From IMG/VR virus record IMGVR_UViG_2654587772_000002: a DNA stretch of 64,000 nt; one strand, written 5' to 3'. The notes under the pieces were generated by a model. It did no database searches, had not been told where the DNA came from, and worked only from the letters and a program-made list of their open reading frames with translations. Below, in pieces: positions 67-27,529 of the stretch; the stretch's first letter is position 1; each line of letters opens with the position of its first letter. The translations under genes were made by a program, and so were the position numbers. The stretch comes from a virus (taxonomy: Duplodnaviria > Heunggongvirae > Uroviricota > Caudoviricetes).

Positions 67-83
67 ATTGCTCTAATGCATTG
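67..83 (+). promoter_or_regulatory. C1 repressor operator-like site (ATTGCTCTAATGCATTG) upstream of lpa
   Basis: Direct match to the asymmetric P1 C1 operator consensus ATTGCTCTAATAAATTT. Confidence 0.5.
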
Positions 84-3372: not shown

Positions 3373-3389
3373 CTTGCTCTAATAAATTG
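3373..3389 (+). promoter_or_regulatory. C1 operator-like site (CTTGCTCTAATAAATTG) preceding the immI-like module
   Basis: 15/17 match to C1 operator consensus. Confidence 0.5.
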
Positions 3390-5933: not shown

Positions 5934-6043
5934 TGATCCTCCTCCAGAATTGACATGGTCAATAACGCCCGGCTGAGAAAACCGGTCATTACTGACCTAT
6001 ATTATAGAGGGATCAAACAAAAATAATAGATTTATTAGTGCAT

Positions 6044-6253
6044 TTATTGTGAGTCCAACTGGTTAGTTGCCATGAGATATTCGATTGTGTCAGTGAGGTC
6101 ATCCAGGTCGTCTTGGGTGATGCGGTACTCCTGATTGGATATCTTTGAGTAGTGTTCAGCAATGGCGCGGGCAGCGTCGGTTTCGGCAGGGTCTACAGAT
6201 AAAGCGTTAGAGCAATGTCTAACGTCGTCGATGGTTGGTTGAATGAAAGCCAT
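6044..6253 (-). CDS. coi: C1 inactivator Coi (69 aa)
   Basis: 69-aa ORF upstream of c1 in same orientation, operator sites upstream. Confidence 0.8.
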   Translation of the reverse strand: MAFIQPTIDDVRHCSNALSVDPAETDAARAIAEHYSKISNQEYRITQDDLDDLTDTIEYLMATNQLDSQ

Positions 6254-6492
6254 AATTATGCCTCACTGTATTGACAACACAGAGCCTGAAGCTCTGACCT
6301 ACTGTTTCACCCATGATCCATGCTGGGGTAATCTAACAACATTGCGCTGTGTGTAAGATGAGCAATGCATAGCTGTAATGCCGTTGTATAAGGTTTCCCT
6401 GTTTGCTCATTTCCTTCTGAGCCGCTCTACAACGCTGAAGACACATTAAATAGTGAATCCAAAGTCGTATTACGAAACGGCGGCAAAACTAT

Positions 6493-6509
6493 AATTTATT
6501 AGAGCAATT
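6493..6509 (-). promoter_or_regulatory. C1 operator (reverse complement ATTGCTCTAATAAATTA) in coi-c1 promoter region
   Basis: 16/17 consensus match on minus strand. Confidence 0.6.
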
Positions 6510-6574: not shown

Positions 6575-6590
6575 ATTGCTCTAATAATTC
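6575..6590 (+). promoter_or_regulatory. C1 operator (ATTGCTCTAATAATTC) in coi-c1 promoter region
   Basis: Consensus match read in sequence. Confidence 0.6.
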
Positions 6591-6634
6591 TTGATTTTTA
6601 TGCGCAGCTGGACGTAAACTCCTCTTCAGACCTA

Positions 6635-6668
6635 ATAACTTCGTATAGCATACATTATACGAAGTTAT
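6635..6668. other. loxP: loxP site-specific recombination site (ATAACTTCGTATA-GCATACAT-TATACGAAGTTAT)
   Basis: Exact 34-bp loxP sequence present. Confidence 0.98.
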
Positions 6669-6857
6669 ATTAAGGGTTATTGAATATGATCAATTTACCT
6701 GTAAATCCATACAGTTCAATACCTTGGCAGGTCAAATAGTGATCACTTGATCATTTGATCAAGGTTGCGCTACGTAAAATCTGTGAAAAATTGGCGGTGT
6801 TAGTCCTACAGATTTCGCGTAGCGCACTTAGCACCACCAATCAATCAGAGGTGAAAA

Positions 6858-7079
6858 ATGGGATATTCAACTGCTAAAGTGTCCACTCATCTTGAGCTTG
6901 AGAAAAACCGTGGTTACTGGCGGGCAAAAGGGTTTGATCGTGATAGTTGCCAACTGTCATTATCGCGCGGTGAAGAAAAAATAGAACGCACGCGCGGTCG
7001 CTGGCGTTTCTATGACGAGAACCATAAACAGGTAAAGGCAGAGCCGATCCTGTACACTTTACTTAAAACCATTATCTGA
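6858..7079 (+). CDS. Hypothetical small protein (73 aa) between loxP and cre
   Basis: ORF with SD GAGGTG 7 nt upstream of ATG; no recognisable domain. Confidence 0.3.
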   Translation: MGYSTAKVSTHLELEKNRGYWRAKGFDRDSCQLSLSRGEEKIERTRGRWRFYDENHKQVKAEPILYTLLKTII

Positions 7080-7086
7080 GTGTTAA

Positions 7087-8118
7087 ATGTCCAATTTACT
7101 GACCGTACACCAAAATTTGCCTGCATTACCGGTCGATGCAACGAGTGATGAGGTTCGCAAGAATCTGATGGACATGTTCAGGGATCGCCAGGCGTTTTCT
7201 GAGCATACTTGGAAAATGCTTCTGTCCGTTTGCCGGTCGTGGGCGGCATGGTGCAAGTTGAATAACCGGAAGTGGTTTCCCGCAGAACCTGAAGATGTTC
7301 GCGATTATCTTCTATATCTTCAGGCGCGCGGTCTGGCAGTGAAAACTATCCAGCAACATTTGGGCCAGCTAAATATGCTTCATCGTCGGTCCGGGCTGCC
7401 ACGACCAAGTGACAGCAATGCTGTTTCACTGGTCATGCGACGGATCCGAAAAGAAAACGTTGATGCCGGTGAGCGTGCAAAACAGGCGCTGGCGTTCGAA
7501 CGCACTGATTTCGACCAGGTTCGTTCACTCATGGAAAATAGCGATCGCTGCCAGGATATACGTAATCTGGCATTTCTGGGGATTGCTTATAACACCCTGT
7601 TACGTATAGCCGAAATTTCCAGGATCAGAGTTAAAGATATCTCACGTACTGACGGTGGGAGAATGTTAATCCATATTGGCAGAACGAAAACGCTGGTTAG
7701 CACCGCTGGTGTAGAGAAGGCACTTAGTCTGGGGGTAACTAAACTGGTTGAGCGATGGATTTCTGTCTCTGGTGTGGCTGATGATCCGAATAACTACTTG
7801 TTTTGCCGTGTCAGAAAAAATGGTGTTGCCGCGCCATCTGCCACCAGCCAGCTATCAACTCGCGCCCTGGAAGGGATTTTTGAAGCAACTCACCGATTGA
7901 TTTACGGGGCTAAGGATGACTCTGGCCAGAGGTACCTGGCCTGGTCTGGACACAGTGCCCGTGTCGGAGCCGCGCGAGATATGGCCCGCGCCGGAGTTTC
8001 AATACCGGAGATCATGCAAGCTGGTGGCTGGACCAACGTAAATATTGTCATGAACTATATCCGTAACCTGGATAGTGAAACAGGGGCAATGGTGCGCCTG
8101 CTGGAAGATGGCGATTAG
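7087..8118 (+). CDS. cre: Cre tyrosine recombinase (343 aa)
   Basis: Translation begins MSNLLTVHQNLPALPVDATSDEVRKNLMDMFRDRQAFSEHTWKMLLSVCRSWAAWCKLNNRKWFPAEPEDVRDYLLYLQARGLAVKTIQQHLGQLNMLHRRSGLPRPSDSNAVSLVMRRIRKENVDAGERAKQALAFERTDFDQVRSLMENSDRCQDIRNLAFLGIAYNTLLRIAEISRIRVKDISRTDGGRMLIHIGRTKTLVSTAGVEKALSLGVTKLVERWISVSGVADDPNNYLFCRVRKNGVAAPSATSQLSTRALEGIFEATHRLIYGAKDDSGQRYLAWSGHSARVGAARDMARAGVSIPEIMQAGGWTNVNIVMNYIRNLDSETGAMVRLLEDGD, i.e. Cre; loxP ~420 bp upstream. Confidence 0.98.
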   Translation: MSNLLTVHQNLPALPVDATSDEVRKNLMDMFRDRQAFSEHTWKMLLSVCRSWAAWCKLNNRKWFPAEPEDVRDYLLYLQARGLAVKTIQQHLGQLNMLHRRSGLPRPSDSNAVSLVMRRIRKENVDAGERAKQALAFERTDFDQVRSLMENSDRCQDIRNLAFLGIAYNTLLRIAEISRIRVKDISRTDGGRMLIHIGRTKTLVSTAGVEKALSLGVTKLVERWISVSGVADDPNNYLFCRVRKNGVAAPSATSQLSTRALEGIFEATHRLIYGAKDDSGQRYLAWSGHSARVGAARDMARAGVSIPEIMQAGGWTNVNIVMNYIRNLDSETGAMVRLLEDGD

Positions 8119-8168
8119 CCATTAACGCGTAAATGATTGTTCTAATTCTTTGATATTTATGGTGACAT

Positions 8169-8480
8169 ATGAGAAAGGATTTCAACATCGACGGAAAATA
8201 TGTAGTGCTGTCTGTAAGCACTAATATTCAGTCGCCAGCCGTCATTGTCACTGTAAAGCTGAGCGATAGAATGCCTGATATTGACTCAATATCCGTTGCG
8301 TTCCCTGTCAAAAGTATGCGTGGTGCTGAACATTTCGTGATGAATGCCACCGAGGAAGAAGCACGGCGCGGTTTTGCTAAAGTAGTGTCTGACTTTGGCG
8401 AACTCTTGGATAAGGTTAACAATGTCCTTTCAATCAGTTCAGCAAGGTCCAAAGCGTTAACAGCTTCCATGATGAAATAA
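8169..8480 (+). CDS. Hypothetical protein (103 aa) downstream of cre (position of P1 cra)
   Basis: ORF only; no domain recognised. Confidence 0.35.
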   Translation: MRKDFNIDGKYVVLSVSTNIQSPAVIVTVKLSDRMPDIDSISVAFPVKSMRGAEHFVMNATEEEARRGFAKVVSDFGELLDKVNNVLSISSARSKALTASMMK

Positions 8481-8485
8481 AAAAA

Positions 8486-8504
8486 GCCTGGCAAGGAACC
8501 AGGC
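8486..8504 (-). terminator. Hairpin GCCTGG-loop-CCAGGC preceded by an A-run (U-run on minus strand)
   Basis: Stem-loop plus T-tract when read on minus strand. Confidence 0.35.
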
Positions 8505-8607
8505 TGCACAAAAGAGCGGGTTTGTGTTCCGCATCCAATCAATCAGAAAGGAGTATAGCACATAGATACTAAAGTGAAAAAATGTGACTGAAGATAAACA
8601 ATATAAC

Positions 8608-8624
8608 ATTGCTCTAATTGATTG
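8608..8624 (+). promoter_or_regulatory. C1 operator-like site (ATTGCTCTAATTGATTG), apparently orphaned from ref by the cargo insertion
   Basis: Consensus match; no operator found immediately upstream of the ref-like gene at 11982. Confidence 0.45.
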
Positions 8625-8828
8625 TTATAATTGAGCCGTGGCGTTAGTCAACTACGAAGACGTGGCCATTACCTACTTAACCAGTTCCGCCAGGGCAGCA
8701 GAGTAGGTTTCATCTCGGATGTACCATGCCTGCATGTTTTCCAGAGAAGCCCGCGAGGTTCCCGGACAGGACTCTGCCATTGCGATAGATTAAATGCAAT
8801 AACCTAAAAGCGATAACGTGGTGGAAAA

Positions 8829-9468
8829 ATGTTCATCAGAGCTTATTTAAGGGCATCAACGGAAGATCAGTTTGCCGATCGGGCAAAAGAGATGCTGGGG
8901 CAGTTTGTTCAGGAGCGGGGACATAAAATAGCCAGTTACTACCGGGAGAACATAAGCGGTACAAAACTCGACCGCCGGAACTGGGACGCTTACTGATGGA
9001 CAGCCACCGCAATGATATTTTACTGGTCGAGCAAATTGACCGCCTGACCCGTCTGAGTAACAGTGACTGGATTACGCTGAAAAAGCAGATAGAACAACAC
9101 GAACTGCGGATTGTCGCCTGGATGTATCCACCTCATGGCAGGCGCTGTCAGATAAAGACCCTTCGCAGGCTGACCCAATCACCCGCGCCGTGATAACCGC
9201 CATCAATAACATGCTTATCGACCTGATGGCCGCGATGTCGCATAAGGACTGGCTGAGCCGTCGCCAACGGCAACAACAGGGAATTGAACGGGCTCATACG
9301 CTGGGTAAATACCGGGGATAACAGGCCGATCAGGAACGGCATCAGAAAGTCCTGTACTACTGGCAGGTCAAGAAACTAAGTATCCATGAAACGGCAGATG
9401 CGACAGGGTACAGTCCTTCACAGATATGCCGCATTCAAGCCCTTTATAGAGAGCCTGAATCGGAATAA
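8829..9468 (+). pseudogene. Serine recombinase (resolvase/invertase family) remnant with at least two frame disruptions
   Basis: N-terminal MFIRAYLRASTEDQ motif (catalytic Ser region), then ...DILLVEQIDRLTRL... and a C-terminal HTH-like part in other frames; interrupted by stops. Confidence 0.6.
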
Positions 9469-9574
9469 AAAGTAGCCCAGGCGTTAATGGATTACCTTTC
9501 CAGGCTAAGCTCATTGCTCCTGTCAGATACGCAGCCCTGCCTGTAATAATACAGACTGGGCAATGTGTTGCCAC

Positions 9575-9904
9575 TCAGGCTGACAACTGTCGGAGGATAT
9601 CCGCTGTATTATAATGAGCCCGTTTTTCTATATATTTCCCGTCTTTCAGAGTGATCATAAACATCAGAGAAAAGCGCACTTTCCTGCCGCTGGCAGGATG
9701 CCCAAGGAATTCACGGGTCTGCACGCCTTCAAAGATAAGATAGCAGGCGACTTTATCGTCTCTGGCAAAGATTTCGTGGATACGCATTGTAAATCCCGGA
9801 AAAGCATCCATATGGCCTTTTTCCTGTACGATAAACTGCTCACTGTTCAGCGGTGTATCCACCTGAGAATAGAATTTAAAATCCGGATGGCAGAGGTTTT
9901 TCAC
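9575..9904 (-). CDS. NTF2-like/SnoaL-like small protein; upstream in-frame ATG (9976) is separated from the body by a TAA at 9965-9967
   Basis: Translation ...ENIKTVKKFYRLIEENKYDEVKNLCHPDF... resembles SnoaL-like fold proteins; in-frame stop read directly. Confidence 0.45.
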   Translation of the reverse strand: MKNLCHPDFKFYSQVDTPLNSEQFIVQEKGHMDAFPGFTMRIHEIFARDDKVACYLIFEGVQTREFLGHPASGRKVRFSLMFMITLKDGKYIEKRAHYNTADILRQLSA

Positions 9905-9984
9905 CTCATCATATTTATTTTCTTCAATCAGACGATAAAACTTTTTAACCGTTTTGATATTTTCTTAAACAGACATATTGCACC

Positions 9985-10974
9985 TCATTTTTCAGTTTCT
10001 TTACCTGCCGGAATATTGCCTTCCGGCGTTCCGTTAAATGTTTTTCGCCATTCACTGGGACTGACTCCCATCCGCTGCCGGAATATCTGCCGGAAAGTAA
10101 TGGTGGACTGAAAGCCTGCCAGTTCGGCAACCCGCTCCACTGCAATATCTGTACTTTCCAGCAGTTCCTGACTCCGCCGGAGACGCTCTGTGGTGATCCA
10201 CTCCCAGACCGTCATTCCTGTGGCCGAATGAAAATGGCGTGTAAGCGTTCTTCGGCTCATGGAGGCTAAATGGGCCAGAGTGTCAATATCATGTGGTAAT
10301 CCCAGATTTGCGGACAGGTATTCCAGCAGCTGGTTTATGCGGTTATCGGACGTACTTTTGGGAATAAGCAGTTGCCGGTACTGTGCCTGTCCGCCTTCCC
10401 GGTAAGGAGGAGCAACCATCCGGCGGGCTATTTGATTAGCCGTATATCTGCCCAGGCGTTGCCGGATCACATGGAGACAACAGTCCAGTGCTGCGGCTGT
10501 ACCGGCTGAGGTGATAATCCGCTCGTCCTCAACATAAAGCACGTTCACGTCCAGATGAACCGCCGGGAAAAGCATCTGGAAATCCCGTTCAGCCTCCCAG
10601 TGCGTGGCCGCCCGTTTACCATCCAGCAGACCGGTGTAAGCCAGAACAAAACTCCCCAGGCACAGGCCCACCACCTGAGCTCCATTTTTCCAGGCTGCAA
10701 CCAGGGCACTGAGCAGAGTTTCAGAAGGCCTTTCATGGATGTGTTTCCAGAAAGGAATAATAACGATATCGGCCTCTGCCAGTGCATCAAGCCCGTATTC
10801 TGCCCTCATCGCCGTACCTTCAGCAGACCAGATAAGCCCGGGCTCTTCCGCACATACCCGGCGGCTGAAGAGGGCCTTCCCTTCCAGTATCTCCCCGAAC
10901 AGGATTAATGGAACGGAGACATGAAATGTACTGAACCCTTCGGTGATCACTATAGCGACAGTGATGGTGGACAT
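9985..10974 (-). CDS. GlxA-family transcriptional regulator (DJ-1/PfpI N-domain + AraC-type HTH C-domain), 329 aa
   Basis: Domain architecture recognised in translation (C-terminal ...RRTLTRHFHSATGMTVWEWITTERLRRSQELLESTDIAVERVAELAGFQSTITFRQIFRQRMGVSPSEWRK). Confidence 0.75.
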   Translation of the reverse strand: MSTITVAIVITEGFSTFHVSVPLILFGEILEGKALFSRRVCAEEPGLIWSAEGTAMRAEYGLDALAEADIVIIPFWKHIHERPSETLLSALVAAWKNGAQVVGLCLGSFVLAYTGLLDGKRAATHWEAERDFQMLFPAVHLDVNVLYVEDERIITSAGTAAALDCCLHVIRQRLGRYTANQIARRMVAPPYREGGQAQYRQLLIPKSTSDNRINQLLEYLSANLGLPHDIDTLAHLASMSRRTLTRHFHSATGMTVWEWITTERLRRSQELLESTDIAVERVAELAGFQSTITFRQIFRQRMGVSPSEWRKTFNGTPEGNIPAGKETEK

Positions 10975-10989
10975 GCCATGGCCTCCGGG

Positions 10990-11766
10990 TTAAATCGTAA
11001 CTGATTCACCATCAGCAGGAGCGACAACTGACGCCTGGATCTGGTTATCGCGGGCATATTCCAGCAGTTCCTGACGGGTCAGCAGACAGTGGTTTACGGC
11101 CTCCATGTGCGTTGCCACAATCAGTGCCTCTGGTACGATACGATGGGCTTTCAGGACATCTTCCCTGCCGAAAATAATGGGGCCGAATCCGAGAACATGC
11201 GCCCAGCCCGTATTCATAATAACGACGCCAGGATTGAACCGACGTAAATTATCCTCTACAGCCTTGATCCAGATGGTATCCCCAACCAGATAGAGCGTTT
11301 TTTCGGACGGATGCTGGAAGACCACCCCACAGGCATCCCCAAGAATTGCTGCGAGTTGCGGGTTAGCATAGGCTTCGTCCGAACCATGCTGACAAACGGT
11401 TTTAATAAGTGAAATTTCGCCAAATGTGCTTTTGTCAGACAGAATAACAAGGTTGCTGAAGCCCTGGGAACGCAGGATCTTTTCATCATGTTCATTCTGA
11501 ACATAAATCAGTTTATCTTTCGGGATGTGCGCAACAGCCGCTTCATCCCAGTGGTCAGGGTGTGTGTGGGTGACAATAATGGCATCCACATCCAGCAGTA
11601 CATCAAGGTCAAAAGGCAGCTCAGTCATCGGGATGCGGATATCTGACCGGGCCGTTCCTTCGAATCCCGGATAGGCTTCTTTTTTCGCAAGCATCGGATC
11701 GACAAGAAATTTTTTACCAGCGTAAGAAATGAGTTGTGTGGCGTTACGTACCTGGATGATCTTCAT
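10990..11766 (-). CDS. MBL-fold metallo-hydrolase (258 aa) with HTHPDH metal-binding motif
   Basis: HxHxDH motif and overall MBL-like pattern in translation. Confidence 0.7.
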   Translation of the reverse strand: MKIIQVRNATQLISYAGKKFLVDPMLAKKEAYPGFEGTARSDIRIPMTELPFDLDVLLDVDAIIVTHTHPDHWDEAAVAHIPKDKLIYVQNEHDEKILRSQGFSNLVILSDKSTFGEISLIKTVCQHGSDEAYANPQLAAILGDACGVVFQHPSEKTLYLVGDTIWIKAVEDNLRRFNPGVVIMNTGWAHVLGFGPIIFGREDVLKAHRIVPEALIVATHMEAVNHCLLTRQELLEYARDNQIQASVVAPADGESVTI

Positions 11767-11981
11767 TTTAGCAAGTCCTGTATTGGTTAATAACCATCAG
11801 AGCCATATCATGATGGCCTAATGTGATAATTATGATTAAATCAGGCCTGCCTGCCACTGAAATAATGCCATATTTGGATGATATCAGGCCATTCTTCTGG
11901 CTCTCAGGTTTCAGGAATATGTCTGCTGAAAGCGGGTACAGATCTGACGCATTGAAGGGAAGTATCGTCCTTTAAGGCTTA

Positions 11982-12371
11982 TTGATGTCAGCCAGTACAA
12001 AAAATCATCTTAACGTACAATATCTTCCGTTTCCCAAACGGAGCCCACCAACGACGGAGGAACGGCGCATCGCCAATGCTCTTGGCGCTCTCCCCTGCAT
12101 TGCCTGCTATATGCCTGGAGTAATATCTAATGAGGTGTCTCTGAACCATATCGCCGGTCGTACCGCGCCGGGTTGTCACAAAAAGCAATTGCCACTTTGT
12201 AGATGGCACCACCAGCATGCAGCACCGGCTGAAGTAAGAGAAAAATACCCCTGGCTGGTCCCTGTTCATGCCGATGGTGTGGTTGGAGGCAAGAAAGAAT
12301 TCACCTTGCTGAACAAGTCAGAGATGGAGTTGCTGGCTGACGCCTATGAAATGGCAAACGTCATGCACTAA
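11982..12371 (+). CDS. HNH-type nuclease-like protein, possibly Ref (recombination enhancement) homolog lacking the N-terminal region
   Basis: Cys/His cluster (CIACYMPG...SLNHIAG...CHKK...CRWHHQH); position before mat as P1 ref; shorter than P1 Ref as I recall it. Confidence 0.4.
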   Translation: MMSASTKNHLNVQYLPFPKRSPPTTEERRIANALGALPCIACYMPGVISNEVSLNHIAGRTAPGCHKKQLPLCRWHHQHAAPAEVREKYPWLVPVHADGVVGGKKEFTLLNKSEMELLADAYEMANVMH

Positions 12372-12560
12372 TAAATATATTATTTTTAATCTTAAATGAT
12401 TGACAACTGACAAGTGACTTGAGTCAGAATCATCACACGCCCGGTACGGATGGATCCCTTTTCAAATATTCCATGGACGGCACAGTCTGAGTACCGGGCG
12501 CTACCTTCTGTTGTATTGCTAAGCCGCCGCTGGTGGCTTTTCTTTTTTATAGGGGGCGAT

Positions 12561-13205
12561 ATGGATAAGAAAATATGCGTTGTTTCGATGAGCGTCGGTA
12601 AACCGGCGTCAATGACTGCTGCATGGATCAACAACGAGCTGATAATGGCTGAGCGGACCAGCTACCCTGAACGCCGCCGCGATATGGAACTCCAGCTGCT
12701 GCGCGAATTGCGAGAAAAAGAGGAAAAGGGTTTTATCGTGCTGGTGGAAGAGGAAAACAGCTTTATTACCGGTCGAGTTGGCCAGCGTGTAAGGTTGCGC
12801 GATCCCTTCATGAACGGCAGGCCGGTACTAATTGAAGCAATGCAGATTTACAAGGAGCTGGAACGCCAGAAAGCGATCAAGTTACCGCGCAAGGAATCCG
12901 GCAAATACATCCTCCACCAAAGCATCTTCGATTCCGAACACGATAAAAAAGGCGATGAGTTTTTCAACATCAACTGGAGCGAAATAACGACAGAGCATGT
13001 TCTGACGTTGTTATGCTGCTTCGCAACAGAATACAACAACGTGGTAAGCGCAGACTACATCAGGACAATGACAGACACCGTTACTAAACAAGACAACGAA
13101 TATTCACCATATGAGCCATTTGTAAATATGATAAAAGCATTTTATCGGATGGAGCTCGCTAAAGTTCCTCAAGGTAAATTAACAGGTAAGGATAACATCT
13201 TTTAA
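12561..13205 (+). CDS. Mat-like particle maturation protein (position-based); ORF track extends to 12450 but ATG 12561 has strong SD AGGGGG
   Basis: Synteny with P1 mat; SD-ATG spacing. Confidence 0.45.
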   Translation: MDKKICVVSMSVGKPASMTAAWINNELIMAERTSYPERRRDMELQLLRELREKEEKGFIVLVEEENSFITGRVGQRVRLRDPFMNGRPVLIEAMQIYKELERQKAIKLPRKESGKYILHQSIFDSEHDKKGDEFFNINWSEITTEHVLTLLCCFATEYNNVVSADYIRTMTDTVTKQDNEYSPYEPFVNMIKAFYRMELAKVPQGKLTGKDNIF

Positions 13206-13258
13206 GCACAGTAATGAGGTGCTTAGATGTTAATATCAATATCCTAACTCTCTGCATC

Positions 13259-13948
13259 TCATAAATCTGATAGCCACTTACTATCTATGGACTCAATCTC
13301 CGTCAGCGGAATTGATGGGAAAAAATATCCCTGAGCGCCCCATAGCCCTATTCCTTTTGATAACTTATGACAATCAATGTTTTCGACGCCTTCAGCGATG
13401 ATATTCGGACATAACTTTTTTAAATTGCTAATAATGACATCAAAATGAGGCTTAATCATATGCTCTTGAAAAAATGACTTATCAAGTTTTATTGCATGGT
13501 ATTTATTTTTAATTAATGCTTTCATGGTGGCGTTACCACTTCCAAAATCATCAAGCCAAACATAGTCTGTCAAAGTCAGGAGAAAGGGTATAACGTAATC
13601 CTCATCGCTTAAATCAGGGTAGTTTTCTGATATCTCAAGAACTATAAATTTATTGTTTTTAATTAACTCTTGAGTTTGTTTATTACTGTATATATATATA
13701 CATGTATCATAATCTACATTAATAGAACATAGTATATTATGGCGTTCAAAAAAACACTTGTATTTCATTATTGTGTTAAGTTGTGATTTAAGTAAATTAA
13801 TCTTCATCTTATTGGTAAACATACCCAATACTCTTTGAGTAGGAAGAGCGACACCATCTTTGGAGCGAAATCTGCTTAACACTTCTACTGCAATCAACTT
13901 GTTCGTGCTCGTAGAAATGATTGGTTCTGCAATGTAGATAACTTCCAT
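13259..13948 (-). CDS. Stand-alone EAL-domain protein (229 aa), YdiV/PdeH-like, catalytic motifs apparently conserved
   Basis: Motifs EVL, EISEN, DDFGSG, KLDKSF, EGVEN, QGYFF in EAL order; strong SD GAGGGTGG upstream; very AT-rich. Confidence 0.7.
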   Translation of the reverse strand: MEVIYIAEPIISTSTNKLIAVEVLSRFRSKDGVALPTQRVLGMFTNKMKINLLKSQLNTIMKYKCFFERHNILCSINVDYDTCIYIYSNKQTQELIKNNKFIVLEISENYPDLSDEDYVIPFLLTLTDYVWLDDFGSGNATMKALIKNKYHAIKLDKSFFQEHMIKPHFDVIISNLKKLCPNIIAEGVENIDCHKLSKGIGLWGAQGYFFPSIPLTEIESIDSKWLSDL

Positions 13949-14184
13949 ATCCCCACCCTCAAGTTTTAAATTGCTTGATTTTGCTCAGATAACGAGCCCC
14001 CTATATTTACAAGAGTTACACTCTACTTTTGTAGATTAAATGTCAATTTATTTGTTTGTGATAATATTGAAAAATATCAATTAAAACAATCAAAAAATGT
14101 GACATAAATCAATAATTTTATTTTTACACAACTTCTTGATTTCTGAGCCTAGCTATCTCTATTCTTATTCAAAGCCTCTTTAGA

Positions 14185-14919
14185 ATGGTGGTGGCCATGT
14201 CAGCAGTTTGTTACTTCATACTCATAAAGAAACCTATAAGCTTTCAATTTCTTAAGGATTTCTTAATATTAAATTATGGTGATGTGTTGTTGCTTAAGCA
14301 TTCTGAGCATGAATGCTTAAAAATCTATTCAGACAAATATATAGAATTCGAACTCAATGATAATACCGTAAGAAACTATTTATCATGCAACAACAACCAT
14401 GGAAACCAATCGCTGGATAAGTGTCCGCATTTGCTAAAAAAGTCTTTTGCCTATCCTGATTTATTAATCAGGATGATCGATAATATAAGCGATCAAAATC
14501 ATATCCATTCTGATTTTAGGGAGGCAGTAACTTTTTCATTACTCTCAATTTTTAATGATGTTGATAACTTTAGAGCATTTCTTACGTCTGGTATGCCCAC
14601 TTTCTCAGGGAAAGTGCGCAGCATATTTCTTTCAGATGTATCTAAACACTGGAAACTAAGAGACCTAACCGATTATCTCTACATGAGTGAAAGCTTAATA
14701 AAGAAAAAACTATTATTGGAAAACACCTCCTTCAGTAAGTTATTACTTGATACACGGATGGCTTTTGCTATTAAATTACTAAAGCAAAATCATCCAGTCA
14801 AACAAGTATCAGAAAGCTGTGGCTTTAGTAGTACATCGTACTTTGTGTGCCTGTTCAGGCAATATTATAATTGCACGCCACGTGAATATGCAAAACATCA
14901 ATTATTATCTGGAAAATAA
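14185..14919 (+). CDS. AraC-family transcriptional regulator, AppY/EnvY/GadX-like (244 aa)
   Basis: C-terminal HTH region WKLRDLTDYLYMSESLIKKKLLLENTSFSKLLLDTRMAFAIKLLKQ...GFSSTSYFVCLFRQYYNCTPREY closely resembles E. coli AppY. Confidence 0.75.
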   Translation: MVVAMSAVCYFILIKKPISFQFLKDFLILNYGDVLLLKHSEHECLKIYSDKYIEFELNDNTVRNYLSCNNNHGNQSLDKCPHLLKKSFAYPDLLIRMIDNISDQNHIHSDFREAVTFSLLSIFNDVDNFRAFLTSGMPTFSGKVRSIFLSDVSKHWKLRDLTDYLYMSESLIKKKLLLENTSFSKLLLDTRMAFAIKLLKQNHPVKQVSESCGFSSTSYFVCLFRQYYNCTPREYAKHQLLSGK

Positions 14920-21600: not shown

Positions 21601-22444
21601 TCTCAGCCATCTCTGCCGGATGTTTGCGCATCAGCACCACATCAACGACTGTACTGGTCCCGTTTGCGTCAAAAGTACCGGTAGGCAAGCGGTGAGCGCC
21701 AAGAAATTCAGCTTTACGGGATAAGCGCAGGCGTAACCGCTTCATGTTTGAACCTGAAACAATGGACGGCGGCACAATCACGCACATGAATCCGCCTGGC
21801 TTTATCTTGTCCAGCATGCGGAGCATGAAGTAAGAACCCATGTCCGTTTCTTCTGCGTAAGGCTTATCGATGTTGCGTGTGTTATCACGACCGCCGAACG
21901 GAACGTTACCCACAACATGGTCGAATGAATCGTTAGGCGTGCTTATAGCCAGCTGTTCGAACGGGGAAATCTGTACGCTGTCTTCCGGGTGTAACAACTG
22001 GTTTATACGACCGGAAACACTGCTGATCTCAGTCGCGGTCATCACCGTACCAACCGGTTTTGTCTCATTAAAAACGCCGGTTCCCGCCGATGGTTCCAGA
22101 GTGTTACCTACGTCCGCGCCGTAGAGCTTCATGATCTCCCAGACACCTTCAGCGATCGGCTTTGGTGTGTAATATTCGGAGACGGACCCGCCAATGCCGC
22201 CTTCACCGGTGTACCCAGCCAGGATCTGGCGCTGTTCATCTGTCAGTGTCGCGCCGTCCACCAGCGAATTAAGCAAATCTATCGCCTTCTGATTCGCCTC
22301 CCGGCGCAGTCGGTCATAGCTTTTGCCTTCCACCTTTTCCACGCCGTATTTAATCGGCGCTCGGTGAGATGTTATTGCCCTAATGTATTTCAATATTTCG
22401 CTGACACTTGAACAGCAAAACACCCCCATAAATAGCTTGTTCAT
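15677..22444 (-). CDS. darB: DarB antirestriction protein (2255 aa; N6-adenine methyltransferase-like + DExH helicase domains)
   Basis: Exactly 2255 aa; NVPFGG methyltransferase-like motif, DEGHNYRN helicase motif II. Confidence 0.85.
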   Translation of the reverse strand: MNKLFMGVFCCSSVSEILKYIRAITSHRAPIKYGVEKVEGKSYDRLRREANQKAIDLLNSLVDGATLTDEQRQILAGYTGEGGIGGSVSEYYTPKPIAEGVWEIMKLYGADVGNTLEPSAGTGVFNETKPVGTVMTATEISSVSGRINQLLHPEDSVQISPFEQLAISTPNDSFDHVVGNVPFGGRDNTRNIDKPYAEETDMGSYFMLRMLDKIKPGGFMCVIVPPSIVSGSNMKRLRLRLSRKAEFLGAHRLPTGTFDANGTSTVVDVVLMRKHPAEMAEKIPLVDESTLESANVLWPTFISGKWFEKDGRRFVHGTQEKGFQGRIEVRADGQIDNQALKAKLIHRFESRIDWSLLDMAEPSPTADVVGEGEMRLINGVWQKYAGGRWIEADAGKELKIDAASYGADSWEALQRNLTTTEGRLGMTFTQMANVRDKYTTSISDDMVQLVDWINSQPEKYRERLYRGAMIGRMLIEYQDMKAAGHSAEQIEQQRLSLVSRLQAEIDRFGNPGRGPIAKLSGSGARAWFAFRGAIKLDGSISDELTGKLVTHDSSASYDSNSYQDTLRYLYSDLTRDPIQLDDFRLAFTGELPASDDELLNLLASTPGIAVSPYGGIVPFARATSGDINEIVAPKQEFLATLPDGPVKNNVLNQLAAIEEKRIKTPAENIRFKLNSRWFDRSVILEFLQENGYPDLRYVQSVQLEGDEMVSDTYHGGDGLFVGHRYGVVQRKDKETGEIRYEWDRKSGENATGFPAQLEKYLNGARIGGKDSATANGYREQMALLEDQFNKWIKTHDRYDELVAKYNDVFNSNIPYEHSGDPLGLKGLSGKRQPFDYQNSEVRRLSEDGRGILGFGTGLGKTTTALALEAFNYENGRSTRTAYVVPKAVLENWYYEAKEFLSEEAFSNYLFVGLDVLMDGDQIRQVPVLDENGKPVVGADGTPVMRDALKLADEATITARMNAIPHSNYRAVVFTKEQYARIPLRDDTVDEHAQDMLYDFVAARRVASAMDSDSHRKEAARRRVLSEYSDTGTEKAEKYPYFEDMGFDSVIADEGHNYRNSYKNGREASQLAYLPTSAVAQSARDMAIKNAYLMKKNGGRGPVLLTATPVVNTPIDAYNMLSHVLPKEYWQKMGIYGPDDFVKFFGKTRLETVQKISGEVEEKMALVGFENLDALRGIFHRWVTLKTAEDVKDTVEIPELDEHQQDAPLTEEQLAAYEELRQQAEAAAKANNGVMTSVNEDGVIEHEKARPIFSIIRDMDRVCTDMDLYYRRITYRFLPEYADAVQQLADSLPKQATSEDDDSDDSITQQSQYSLIDKGEFIQLQVPEAFEQEVNKRLAKFGIDEQTVTHPVTPKYAKLIATLKEFFPEGKQIIFTDEKTQHQKLKRIICNALNLEPSKVGILNAQTVAEAGKTGKKLKAVKPPKELPDEPTDAQIAKYNEQIALYDAYIAQQNEMSLGGLEKIAADFQEGRTPIIICNKKAEVGINLHRGTTDIHHLTLPWTPASIAQRNGRGARVGSNRASVRVHYYCGKGSFDEYRLKTLKRKAGWISDILRSDKSEMENADANDMIEMQMYTAKDDGERLAMMQVQMDKAKAAQRARQKEQATIDLQNYIKAQHAAGEDVEVLTAELERSKAELEKTTADVAKFKQAVMAKAADNADWKARWGSVHHTDRTLLAQYRASLKSAIQRKANISQAISRYEKLLNRTQKAATDIKRLRPLVEDAINKGILDVDPDLVNHASEFLIIGDRSWRVGQYYDCAGDIVRIKSLDFDSLRADVEIIFTFKGTKSGNWDVKTLDKQVDVTPDEDAVMQKISGGVSIAGINDIISCDDFYRFQQRGMIKITDSYGVQTTESGYSIDFVGTYTDPLKHAVYPDRRDVALKSSIAKWVLGMMSEGNNRQIRSAETFLVELFGSNYGDVIASYGDTLSPEAIQEKIADAIARMPEKTSQGATRNGDSELEVTNAIFGTNEFRASDYEITTAQFGTIGIYSNKAEIKQAMDAASARIAAEREANLNHAVAALTQSWVTAIREAATTGKITPAIADVVNDGSKFMDAYQMDAVKLPSAYGQLSYRMTYNLVSMFSDLAILGLVDLNEVTPELLSMRKNHVEILQRINTVLAGRTDEEKQADADRINLALGNITEEEIAARNEKQEELSSIQGDATSIAQSLGLNYRVSTADLKMMYAPKFAAGEVFGLQEASGMKGVLFRAKDAIKAKFGARWLPAKAKNSDFPGNWWIIETKHNVADVLAVIQQYA

Positions 22445-27512: not shown

Positions 27513-27529
27513 ATTGCTCTAATTAATTT
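27513..27529 (+). promoter_or_regulatory. C1 operator (ATTGCTCTAATTAATTT) upstream of ssb
   Basis: Consensus match 20 nt upstream of ssb start. Confidence 0.55.

Follow-up and report, generated by a model that had tools for sequence, protein, structure and literature searches.

The SaxA enzymes are hydrolases of the metallo-beta-lactamase (MBL) fold that turn isothiocyanates into the corresponding non-toxic amines (PMC12903958), and SaxA is a demonstrated virulence and tolerance factor, needed for the virulence of Pectobacterium on Brassicaceae (PMC7036374). Tn3-family unit transposons may carry passenger genes between tnpR, the resolvase gene, and the right terminal inverted repeat (IRR), and insertion of one such element, Tn1721-blaCTX-M-27, at ref/mat of the Salmonella phage P1-CTX has been documented (PMC11117986). 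The locus analyzed here lies at positions 8673-12046 of a 64,000-nucleotide stretch of viral DNA (IMG/VR record IMGVR_UViG_2654587772_000002; hereafter, the window), the source of which is a P1-like phage-plasmid with cre at 7087-8118. This block is very probably the decayed right part of a Tn3-family transposon. It stands inside ref and contains intact genes for a SaxA-family hydrolase, which would act on isothiocyanates, and for a GlxA-family regulator. Overall, the locus looks like mobile detoxification cargo, and it also knocks out ref.

The hydrolase shares the MBL fold and the metal ligands with SaxA of Delia radicum gut bacteria (PDB entry 6brm), Pectobacterium, and Pseudomonas; it also has an adjoining GlxA-type regulator, as do loci with an enzyme 91-94% identical to 6brm. 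It belongs to a separate branch of the family and resides on a Tn3-family remnant in an E. coli P1-like phage-plasmid (poultry, pigs, humans), whereas SaxA is found in plant pathogens and insect symbionts. The transposon has the same 38-bp inverted repeat (IR, 1-2 mismatches) as Tn3-family relatives with passengers between tnpR and IRR, and, as reconstructed, the same divergent tnpA and tnpR with res between them as the complete cryptic element of NZ_CP054355.1. Unlike these relatives, it has been reduced to a single IR, pieces of tnpA (105 bp) and res (48 bp), and an inactive tnpR. As in P1-CTX, the ref-mat region of a P1-like phage-plasmid received its cargo from a Tn3-family transposon (PMC11117986), but the cargo in the window is a probable detoxification unit and not an antibiotic-resistance gene, and the insertion lies within ref and was apparently then fixed by deletions. 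Apyc1, an anti-Pycsar phosphodiesterase, has in common with the window enzyme only the MBL superfamily fold and residence in a phage genome; the window enzyme has no detectable sequence similarity and no close structural match to it, and belongs to a chromosomal, regulator-linked family.

Boundaries and features of the inserted block

Alignment with P1 (NC_005856) by blastn matched P1 1-2026 to window 6652-8672 (96.9% identity) and P1 2306-3336 to window 12040-13070 (96.3% identity). The foreign block, 8673-12046 (3,374 bp), stands in place of P1 2027-2312 (286 bp), and the -10 element of the promoter P1ref, the ref start, and ref codons 1-79 were lost with that segment. On the left, the last P1-homologous base is 8672 (P1 2026). 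On the right, the blastn boundary at 12040 was rejected because the 7 bases in question, GGAGCCC, are IR sequence in four unrelated plasmids; the overrun is a chance match. Comparison with other copies of the transposon end set this boundary at 12046/12047, or about P1 2312/2313: the four aligned ends all finish in ...CGTTTCCCAAACGGAGCCC and diverge beyond it, so the transposon in the window ends at 12046 and P1 resumes at about 2313. The features of the block and its edges are listed below in window coordinates.

8603-8631, plus strand: P2ref-like promoter with the C1 operator Oref (8608-8624), from identity to P1 Oref and a 10/12 promoter match
8673-8781, minus strand: internal fragment of tnpA, 105 bp (8677-8781), behind the left P1 junction at 8672/8673; about TnpA residues 626-660
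8781-8828, plus strand: res stub of 48 bp adjoining tnpR, from alignment with tnpA-tnpR intergenic regions
8829-9468, plus strand: tnpR (serine resolvase) pseudogene, PF00239 on two open reading frame (ORF) fragments
9575-9976, minus strand: SnoaL-like gene (NTF2 fold, 'ester cyclase') with a nonsense codon 4, PF07366 (6.9e-24)
9985-10974, minus strand: GlxA-family regulator (DJ-1/PfpI-like domain and AraC helix-turn-helix), 329 aa, intact; PF01965, PF12833, PF00165
10990-11766, minus strand: SaxA-family MBL-fold hydrolase, 258 aa, intact, from homology to 6brm and the predicted fold
11767-11955, minus strand: upstream region travelling with the operon; 11955 is the last position with homology to the module of IncF and Providencia plasmids
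11953-12008, no strand assigned: IR-proximal transposon segment, common to relatives of the transposon with other cargo
12009-12046, minus strand: IRR, the 38-bp terminal inverted repeat GGGCTCCGTTTGGGAAACGGAAGATATTGTACGTTAAG, its outer end abutting ref
12047-12371, plus strand: ref remnant, P1 Ref residues ~80-186, HNH core only; PF16786 (2e-48)

A preliminary description, made from the letters of the window, had reported a foreign cassette between Oref and a 5'-truncated ref, and the P1 alignment, the IRR, and the remaining Ref residues ~80-186 bear this out. All of the elements that it listed are present, although its extent of 8640-11980 had to be adjusted to 8673-12046. Its four gene identities (serine recombinase pseudogene, SnoaL-like protein, GlxA-type regulator, and MBL-fold hydrolase) were upheld by Pfam and NCBIfam, and all three genes of its minus-strand unit were found, with a stop at codon 4 of the SnoaL-like gene that had been overlooked. 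The C1 operator-like site that it placed at 8608 is indeed identical to P1 Oref. The proposed capture of the cassette at the operator-ref junction does not hold, since ref codon 79-80 directly adjoins an intact IRR, and the left boundary is a scar left by deletion.

Anatomy of the transposon remnant

The terminal sequence GGGCTCCGTTTGGGAAACGGAAGATATTGTACGTTAAG is the reverse complement of 12009-12046, is typical of Tn3-family 38-bp IRs, and has a single match in the window where 0 were expected. The same IR, with 1-2 mismatches, is present at both ends of the complete tnpA-res-tnpR transposon in locus L089 (NZ_CP054355.1), and it closes the module in loci L004, L005, L088, and L090. The final 45-95 bp before ref also occur in many unrelated plasmids; in pKP2611-N, the matching end is the far end of a unit consisting of a Tn3-family transposase, a recombinase, and cargo. 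A second terminal IR (~38 bp, outer GGG..., inner ...ACGTTAAG) was not found within the 64-kb window, which thus holds one end only.

The L089 element, 3.9 kb in length and bounded by the IR (1 mismatch) in inverted orientation at both ends, provided the reference layout: IRL at 6962-6999, tnpA at 6995-9982 (minus strand), a 166-bp res, tnpR at 10149-10790 (plus strand), and IRR at 10799-10836. Positions 8677-8781 of the window are 90.5% identical to the inside of its tnpA (L089 8001-8105), and apart from this 105-bp internal fragment the DDE transposase TnpA is absent from the block. In an alignment with the complete sequences between tnpA and tnpR of L003, L088, and L089, the window shows homology to res from 8781 onward, and the remaining res, including the upstream palindromic subsites, is deleted. 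The tnpR gene was compared with the intact 213-aa recombinase of L003 by DNA and tblastn alignment, which located 1-bp deletions near 8974 and 9115 and an in-frame stop at 9319-9321. With two frameshifts and a stop in tnpR and res reduced to 48 bp, no working resolution module is present in the block. Because IRL, nearly all of tnpA, and most of res have been lost, the element can neither transpose nor resolve, and it is a Tn3-family remnant rather than an intact member of the family.

Homology to the cryptic L089 element stops at 9477, precisely where the IRR of that element would start, and therefore 9478-12008 is passenger DNA between tnpR and IRR. At the other end, 11953-12047 aligns at 92.6% identity with the surroundings of blaIMI-2 in L087 and L086. 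The same transposon end (the IR and ~56 bp inside it) adjoins blaIMI-2/nmcR cargo on Enterobacter and E. coli plasmids, and on an IncN plasmid the same IR closes a unit of tnpA, tnpR, and cargo close to qnrS1. A single Tn3-family backbone thus bears a number of different passengers. The insertion sequences (IS) IS5075 and IS4321, of the IS110 family, target Tn21/Tn3-family terminal repeats, and they were seen beside copies of the transposon IR on IncF plasmids (L003 8723-10004; L090 3035-4039). In L003 (NZ_CP117004.1), the IRR is split by IS5075 and is displaced ~1.4 kb from the module.

The following history would account for this anatomy. A Tn3-family unit transposon with the order IRL, tnpA (reverse), res, tnpR (forward), passenger, and IRR would have inserted near codon 79 of ref in a P1-like phage-plasmid. 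One deletion would have run from inside tnpA through IRL to P1 position 2027, and another would have joined the interior of tnpA to res; between them they would account for the loss of IRL, the bulk of tnpA and of res, and 286 bp of P1. Point mutations may afterwards have inactivated tnpR and the SnoaL-like gene. The remnant would then be immobile by its own means and inherited with the phage-plasmid, functional Ref having been lost as a side effect of the insertion. The live cargo would be two genes: a SaxA-family metallo-hydrolase turning isothiocyanates (plant and dietary mustard oils) into amines, and a GlxA-family regulator of the AraC type that would switch the operon on, possibly by sensing an electrophile through an invariant DJ-1-type cysteine.

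The hydrolase and its operon

The MBL protein matched PF12706, and a phmmer search of all PDB chains returned 6brm ('metal-dependent isothiocyanate hydrolase SaxA') as the best match (E 2.3e-92), followed by 3rpc (E 1.6e-73), with no other match better than E 0.02. By BLASTP, identity to 6brm was 53% over 257 residues in a full-length alignment with one 1-residue gap. The AlphaFold model of the protein (pLDDT 96) superposes on 6brm with a TM score of 0.98 and a root mean square deviation of 1.1 A (Foldseek). After 3rpc, fold matches fell to TM scores of 0.78 or less and identities of 19% or less, and comprised NAPE-PLD, UlaG-like, and other generic MBL proteins. The metal ligands H67, H69, D71, and H72 (HxHxDH), H127, D163, and H220 align with those of 6brm and do not vary among 21 homologues. 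Members of the family are otherwise annotated just as 'MBL fold metallo-hydrolase' or 'UlaG-like', and the closest named chromosomal relatives are from Photorhabdus, Erwinia, and Yersinia (75-79% protein identity). The probability that the protein is an isothiocyanate hydrolase is put at roughly 0.65.

For the synteny survey, 80 chromosomal loci from different species were recovered with a profile of the MBL protein. A homologue of the regulator adjoins the MBL gene in 78 of the 80, nearly always immediately downstream on the same strand, and the pair is a chromosomal unit in Enterobacterales and Vibrionales. Three loci with MBL proteins 91-94% identical to 6brm (L069, L078, and L079) also carry a GlxA-type regulator; thus, the clade of the verified enzyme has the same two-gene unit. 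The regulator has the RefSeq name 'GlxA family transcriptional regulator'; it scored 312 bits against the NCBIfam FtrA model, below the cut-off of 425, and identity as the FtrA equivalog was therefore rejected. Two of its cysteines, Cys105 in a G-x-C-x-G 'nucleophile elbow' and Cys165, are conserved without exception across 77 sequences. This conservation is compatible with covalent sensing of an electrophile and is no proof of it, because the cysteine is common in the DJ-1 superfamily. We infer that the GlxA-family protein regulates the hydrolase gene.

The three passenger genes follow one another in tandem on the minus strand, separated by 15 nt and 8 nt, and sites resembling sigma-70 promoters, putative and found by consensus scoring only (9/12 matches), are located upstream at 11907-11878 and 11857-11829. 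Codon 4 of the SnoaL-like gene is TAA (9965-9967), giving MSV*ENIK... in the window where IncF copies read MSVEENIK... (GAA), and the TAA is also present in other P1-like copies. The gene is probably inactive or poorly translated, judging from this codon, and is probably dispensable; only 2 of the 80 loci have a SnoaL homologue together with the MBL gene. In these two, Vibrio injensis (L030, 744-2970) and Rhodanobacter (L046, 6001-7188), the SnoaL homologue (59% identity) directly adjoins the MBL gene, and in the former it stands between the MBL and regulator genes, a linkage that is rare but recurrent. Between the window alleles and the plasmid alleles of L003 and L004, the MBL gene had a dN/dS of 0.09-0.19 and the regulator gene one of 0.10-0.14, and these low values indicate that both evolved as functional genes on mobile elements.

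Consequence for ref

The annotation of P1 places Oref at 1962-1978, P2ref at 1957-1985, P1ref at 2017-2022 (-35) and 2039-2044 (-10), and ref at 2077-2637. Window 8608-8624 is ATTGCTCTAATTGATTG, with no difference from the annotated Oref (P1 1962-1978), and a promoter-like match of 10/12 with a TG extension surrounds it at 8603-8631. Oref and P2ref are kept, whereas the -10 of P1ref, the ref start, and the 5' part of ref are gone. P2ref/Oref now reads into the transposon remnant, antisense to the passenger operon, and any regulatory effect of this arrangement is a matter of speculation.

Intact P1 Ref is a RecA-dependent HNH nuclease. The ref remnant matches positions 1-102 of the 103 in PF16786 and differs from P1 Ref by H102P, H113N, and a few other substitutions. 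The open frame at 11982-12371 starts in transposon sequence, at TTG 11982 or ATG 11985, and its first 22 codons are transposon-end sequence when aligned with P1 Ref. By comparison with P1, Ref residues 1-79, the native ATG, and the -10 of P1ref are absent from the locus. DNA binding by Ref requires the basic region formed by its first 76 residues, and Ref without 66 or 74 N-terminal residues is severely deficient in DNA binding and nuclease activity, with activity returning only at a 10-fold higher concentration (PMC4330346). Since the N-terminus, P1ref, and the native start are missing, ref is effectively knocked out; the equivalent gene in NZ_CP007394.1 is called a partial Ref pseudogene by PGAP. 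Ref raises the ciprofloxacin sensitivity of P1 lysogens and is toxic when expressed (PMC4713147), and its loss could therefore itself be advantageous.

Distribution and mosaic history of the module

The 4.4-kb stretch with both junctions recurs at 99.3-99.9% identity in at least 51 PLSDB plasmids, so the observation is not a chance one, and it is also present in one 95-kb IMG/VR contig. The cassette was found in none of the 22 matching INPHARED phage records, in which matches were confined to the P1 flanks. P1 records that match from 12046 onward (MH422554, MH445380) were set aside as trivial, with an intact ref that has a divergent 5' part. Among complete E. coli genomes, 99 of 5,426 had a match, and in 86 of the 5,426 it covered 80% or more of the three-gene unit. 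Of the 102 places at which E. coli matches occur, 97 are on plasmids. A native chromosomal locus in E. coli was rejected, as the chromosomal copy inspected is a rearranged P1-like prophage. A 401-bp probe across the IRR/ref junction matched ~680 PLSDB records, ~70 of them with the junction itself, which gives a rough estimate of 1 in 10 for the probe-matching plasmids that carry the element; among the matches listed, most cover the ref half only. The hosts among the matches listed include many chickens, hens, geese, ducks, and pigs, and also humans.

Outside P1-like elements, the IncF plasmid NZ_CP117004.1 (L003) has a copy of the module whose recombinase is intact and which is 90% identical over 8781-11955. 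Partial copies are found in a Providencia plasmid (96%; regulator and hydrolase genes and IR) and in other IncF plasmids, with the IR ~80 bp past the module. Nucleotide identity between the window and the NZ_CP117004.1 copy is ~97% for tnpR, 99.8% for the SnoaL-like gene, 90% for the regulator gene, and 81% for the MBL gene, and the MBL gene of the Providencia copy is 98% identical to that of the window. These mosaic identities suggest recombination between transposon variants. No chromosomal donor was found, the best named relatives being 75-79% identical at the protein level. In PHROGs, all three passenger proteins had near-identical full-length families (phrog_27315, phrog_11275, and phrog_18194), which are labelled 'unknown function', were the only strong matches, and probably come from P1-like genomes with the same cassette.

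Flanking features

Additional sites that fit the C1 operator consensus ATTGCTCTAATAAATTT with 1-3 mismatches occur at window 67-83, 3373-3389, 6028-6044, 6492-6508, 6575-6591, 22374-22390, and 27513-27529, and are probably homologues of other P1 operators. Downstream of ref, P1 homology stops inside mat at 13070 and is followed by a low-GC island (28-35% GC; window 13070-14919) that encodes, on the minus strand at 13259-13948, a protein with an EAL domain (PF00563, 5.5e-18) and, on the plus strand at 14185-14919, a regulator of the AraC type. The EcoPI res/mod genes are the P1 content at the position of this island, which is a second cargo region unrelated to the transposon remnant.

Alternative explanations

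The hydrolase could act on another substrate, such as an N-acyl homoserine lactone (AHL), another lactone or ester, or a different electrophile, in which case the likeness to SaxA would reflect a shared subfamily and the cassette would be metabolic or quorum-quenching cargo. Identity of just 53% to the verified enzyme, the generic annotation of the family, the linked 'ester cyclase' gene, which hints at different chemistry, and the taxonomically broad, non-plant spread of the pair all speak for this, but the full-length alignment with its one 1-residue gap, the predicted superposition on 6brm, and the regulator synteny common to the verified clade speak for SaxA activity. No AHL-lactonase or AiiA-type chain was returned at E<=10 from the PDB or in the top 50 fold matches, and the SnoaL gene is missing from 78 of the 80 loci and carries a nonsense codon in the window; a different substrate is accordingly judged unlikely. 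The preliminary description had put forward a cyclic-nucleotide or lactone hydrolase, for which phmmer on the PDB, Foldseek, viral structures, and PADLOC gave no support. An Apyc1-like phosphodiesterase that degrades cyclic-nucleotide immune signals, with the cassette selected for helping the phage, would agree with the common MBL fold, the location of the gene on a phage-plasmid, and a distant fold neighbour that is a cyclic AMP-binding MBL protein (7e3w; TM score 0.65, 18% identity). Apyc1 structures are in the PDB, and yet no Apyc1 chain appeared at E<=10 among all PDB sequences or in the top 50 Foldseek matches; no Apyc1 sequence was compared directly. Viral predicted structures matched the MBL model at the level of the generic fold only (best TM score 0.59, 17% identity), and PADLOC gave zero matches. 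The gene is moreover chromosomal and paired with the regulator in the sampled species, is also present on non-phage IncF and Providencia plasmids, came on a transposon, and is absent from the INPHARED records noted above, all of which makes an anti-defence role highly improbable. Metabolic cargo, the fallback of the preliminary description, is the reading that the SaxA homology and the regulator-linked chromosomal unit favour. That description had also held that high identity to a conserved chromosomal operon of known metabolism, with no Apyc1 similarity, would tell against anti-defence. This is largely what was seen: a conserved chromosomal pair with known biochemistry in the verified clade was found, and the match to it is 53-79% in protein, with no high DNA identity.

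It is also conceivable, at rather long odds, that the cassette has no functional relevance in E. coli and is carried along passively, its frequency being explained by the loss of Ref or by linkage to a successful P1-like lineage. The decay of tnpA, res, tnpR, and the SnoaL gene, the recent spread implied by copies at least 99% identical, the IS elements inside the unit in some copies, and the sensitizing and toxic effects of Ref (PMC4713147) would fit such a history. Set against it are the MBL and regulator ORFs, intact both in the window and in those P1-like copies for which the annotation was inspected, the strong purifying selection between mobile alleles (dN/dS 0.09-0.19), and the restriction of decay to transposition genes and one gene that is dispensable in the chromosomal loci.

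Several observations nevertheless weigh against the preferred interpretation, a transposon-borne isothiocyanate hydrolase unit. Identity of 53% to the verified enzyme leaves room for another specificity, 3rpc (Veillonella; 46% identical) is uncharacterised, and the MBL/regulator pair is found in many bacteria that lack an evident connection to plants (Citrobacter, Enterobacter, Vibrio), so the enzyme may have substrates besides isothiocyanates, or a different main one. The P1/IncF mosaic (SnoaL 99.8%, MBL 81%) is unexplained by single descent. The P1-like copies are nearly clonal (>=99%) and silent on selection in E. coli, and several are interrupted by IS elements. No intact parent transposon with a SaxA-type passenger was found among the contexts inspected, the left end and its flank, where one copy of a 5-bp target-site duplication would be expected, are deleted, and the order of the deletions is one that we infer.

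Implications

The analysis provides a testable function for three proteins that are listed under 'unknown function' in PHROGs and generically named in RefSeq, and the locus drops off the list of candidate phage counter-defence enzymes. P1-like phage-plasmids gain more than antibiotic-resistance genes by Tn3-family transposition at ref. A full-text literature search for 'phage-plasmid' together with 'isothiocyanate' returned no paper on such a unit.

More tentatively, P1-like elements might spread a regulated SaxA-type hydrolase by lysogenic conversion among gut E. coli of poultry, pigs, and humans, with glucosinolate-rich feed or diet as the selecting factor and the regulator sensing through its DJ-1-type cysteine. 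Were this doubtful but possible scenario true, the availability of sulforaphane in the host could change, and the loss of Ref through the same insertion could lower the fluoroquinolone sensitivity of lysogens; interest in the locus would grow if lysogenic conversion to isothiocyanate tolerance were demonstrated. If the enzyme is active, the cassette would give gut E. coli a phage-transmissible means of withstanding and breaking down isothiocyanates from the diet.

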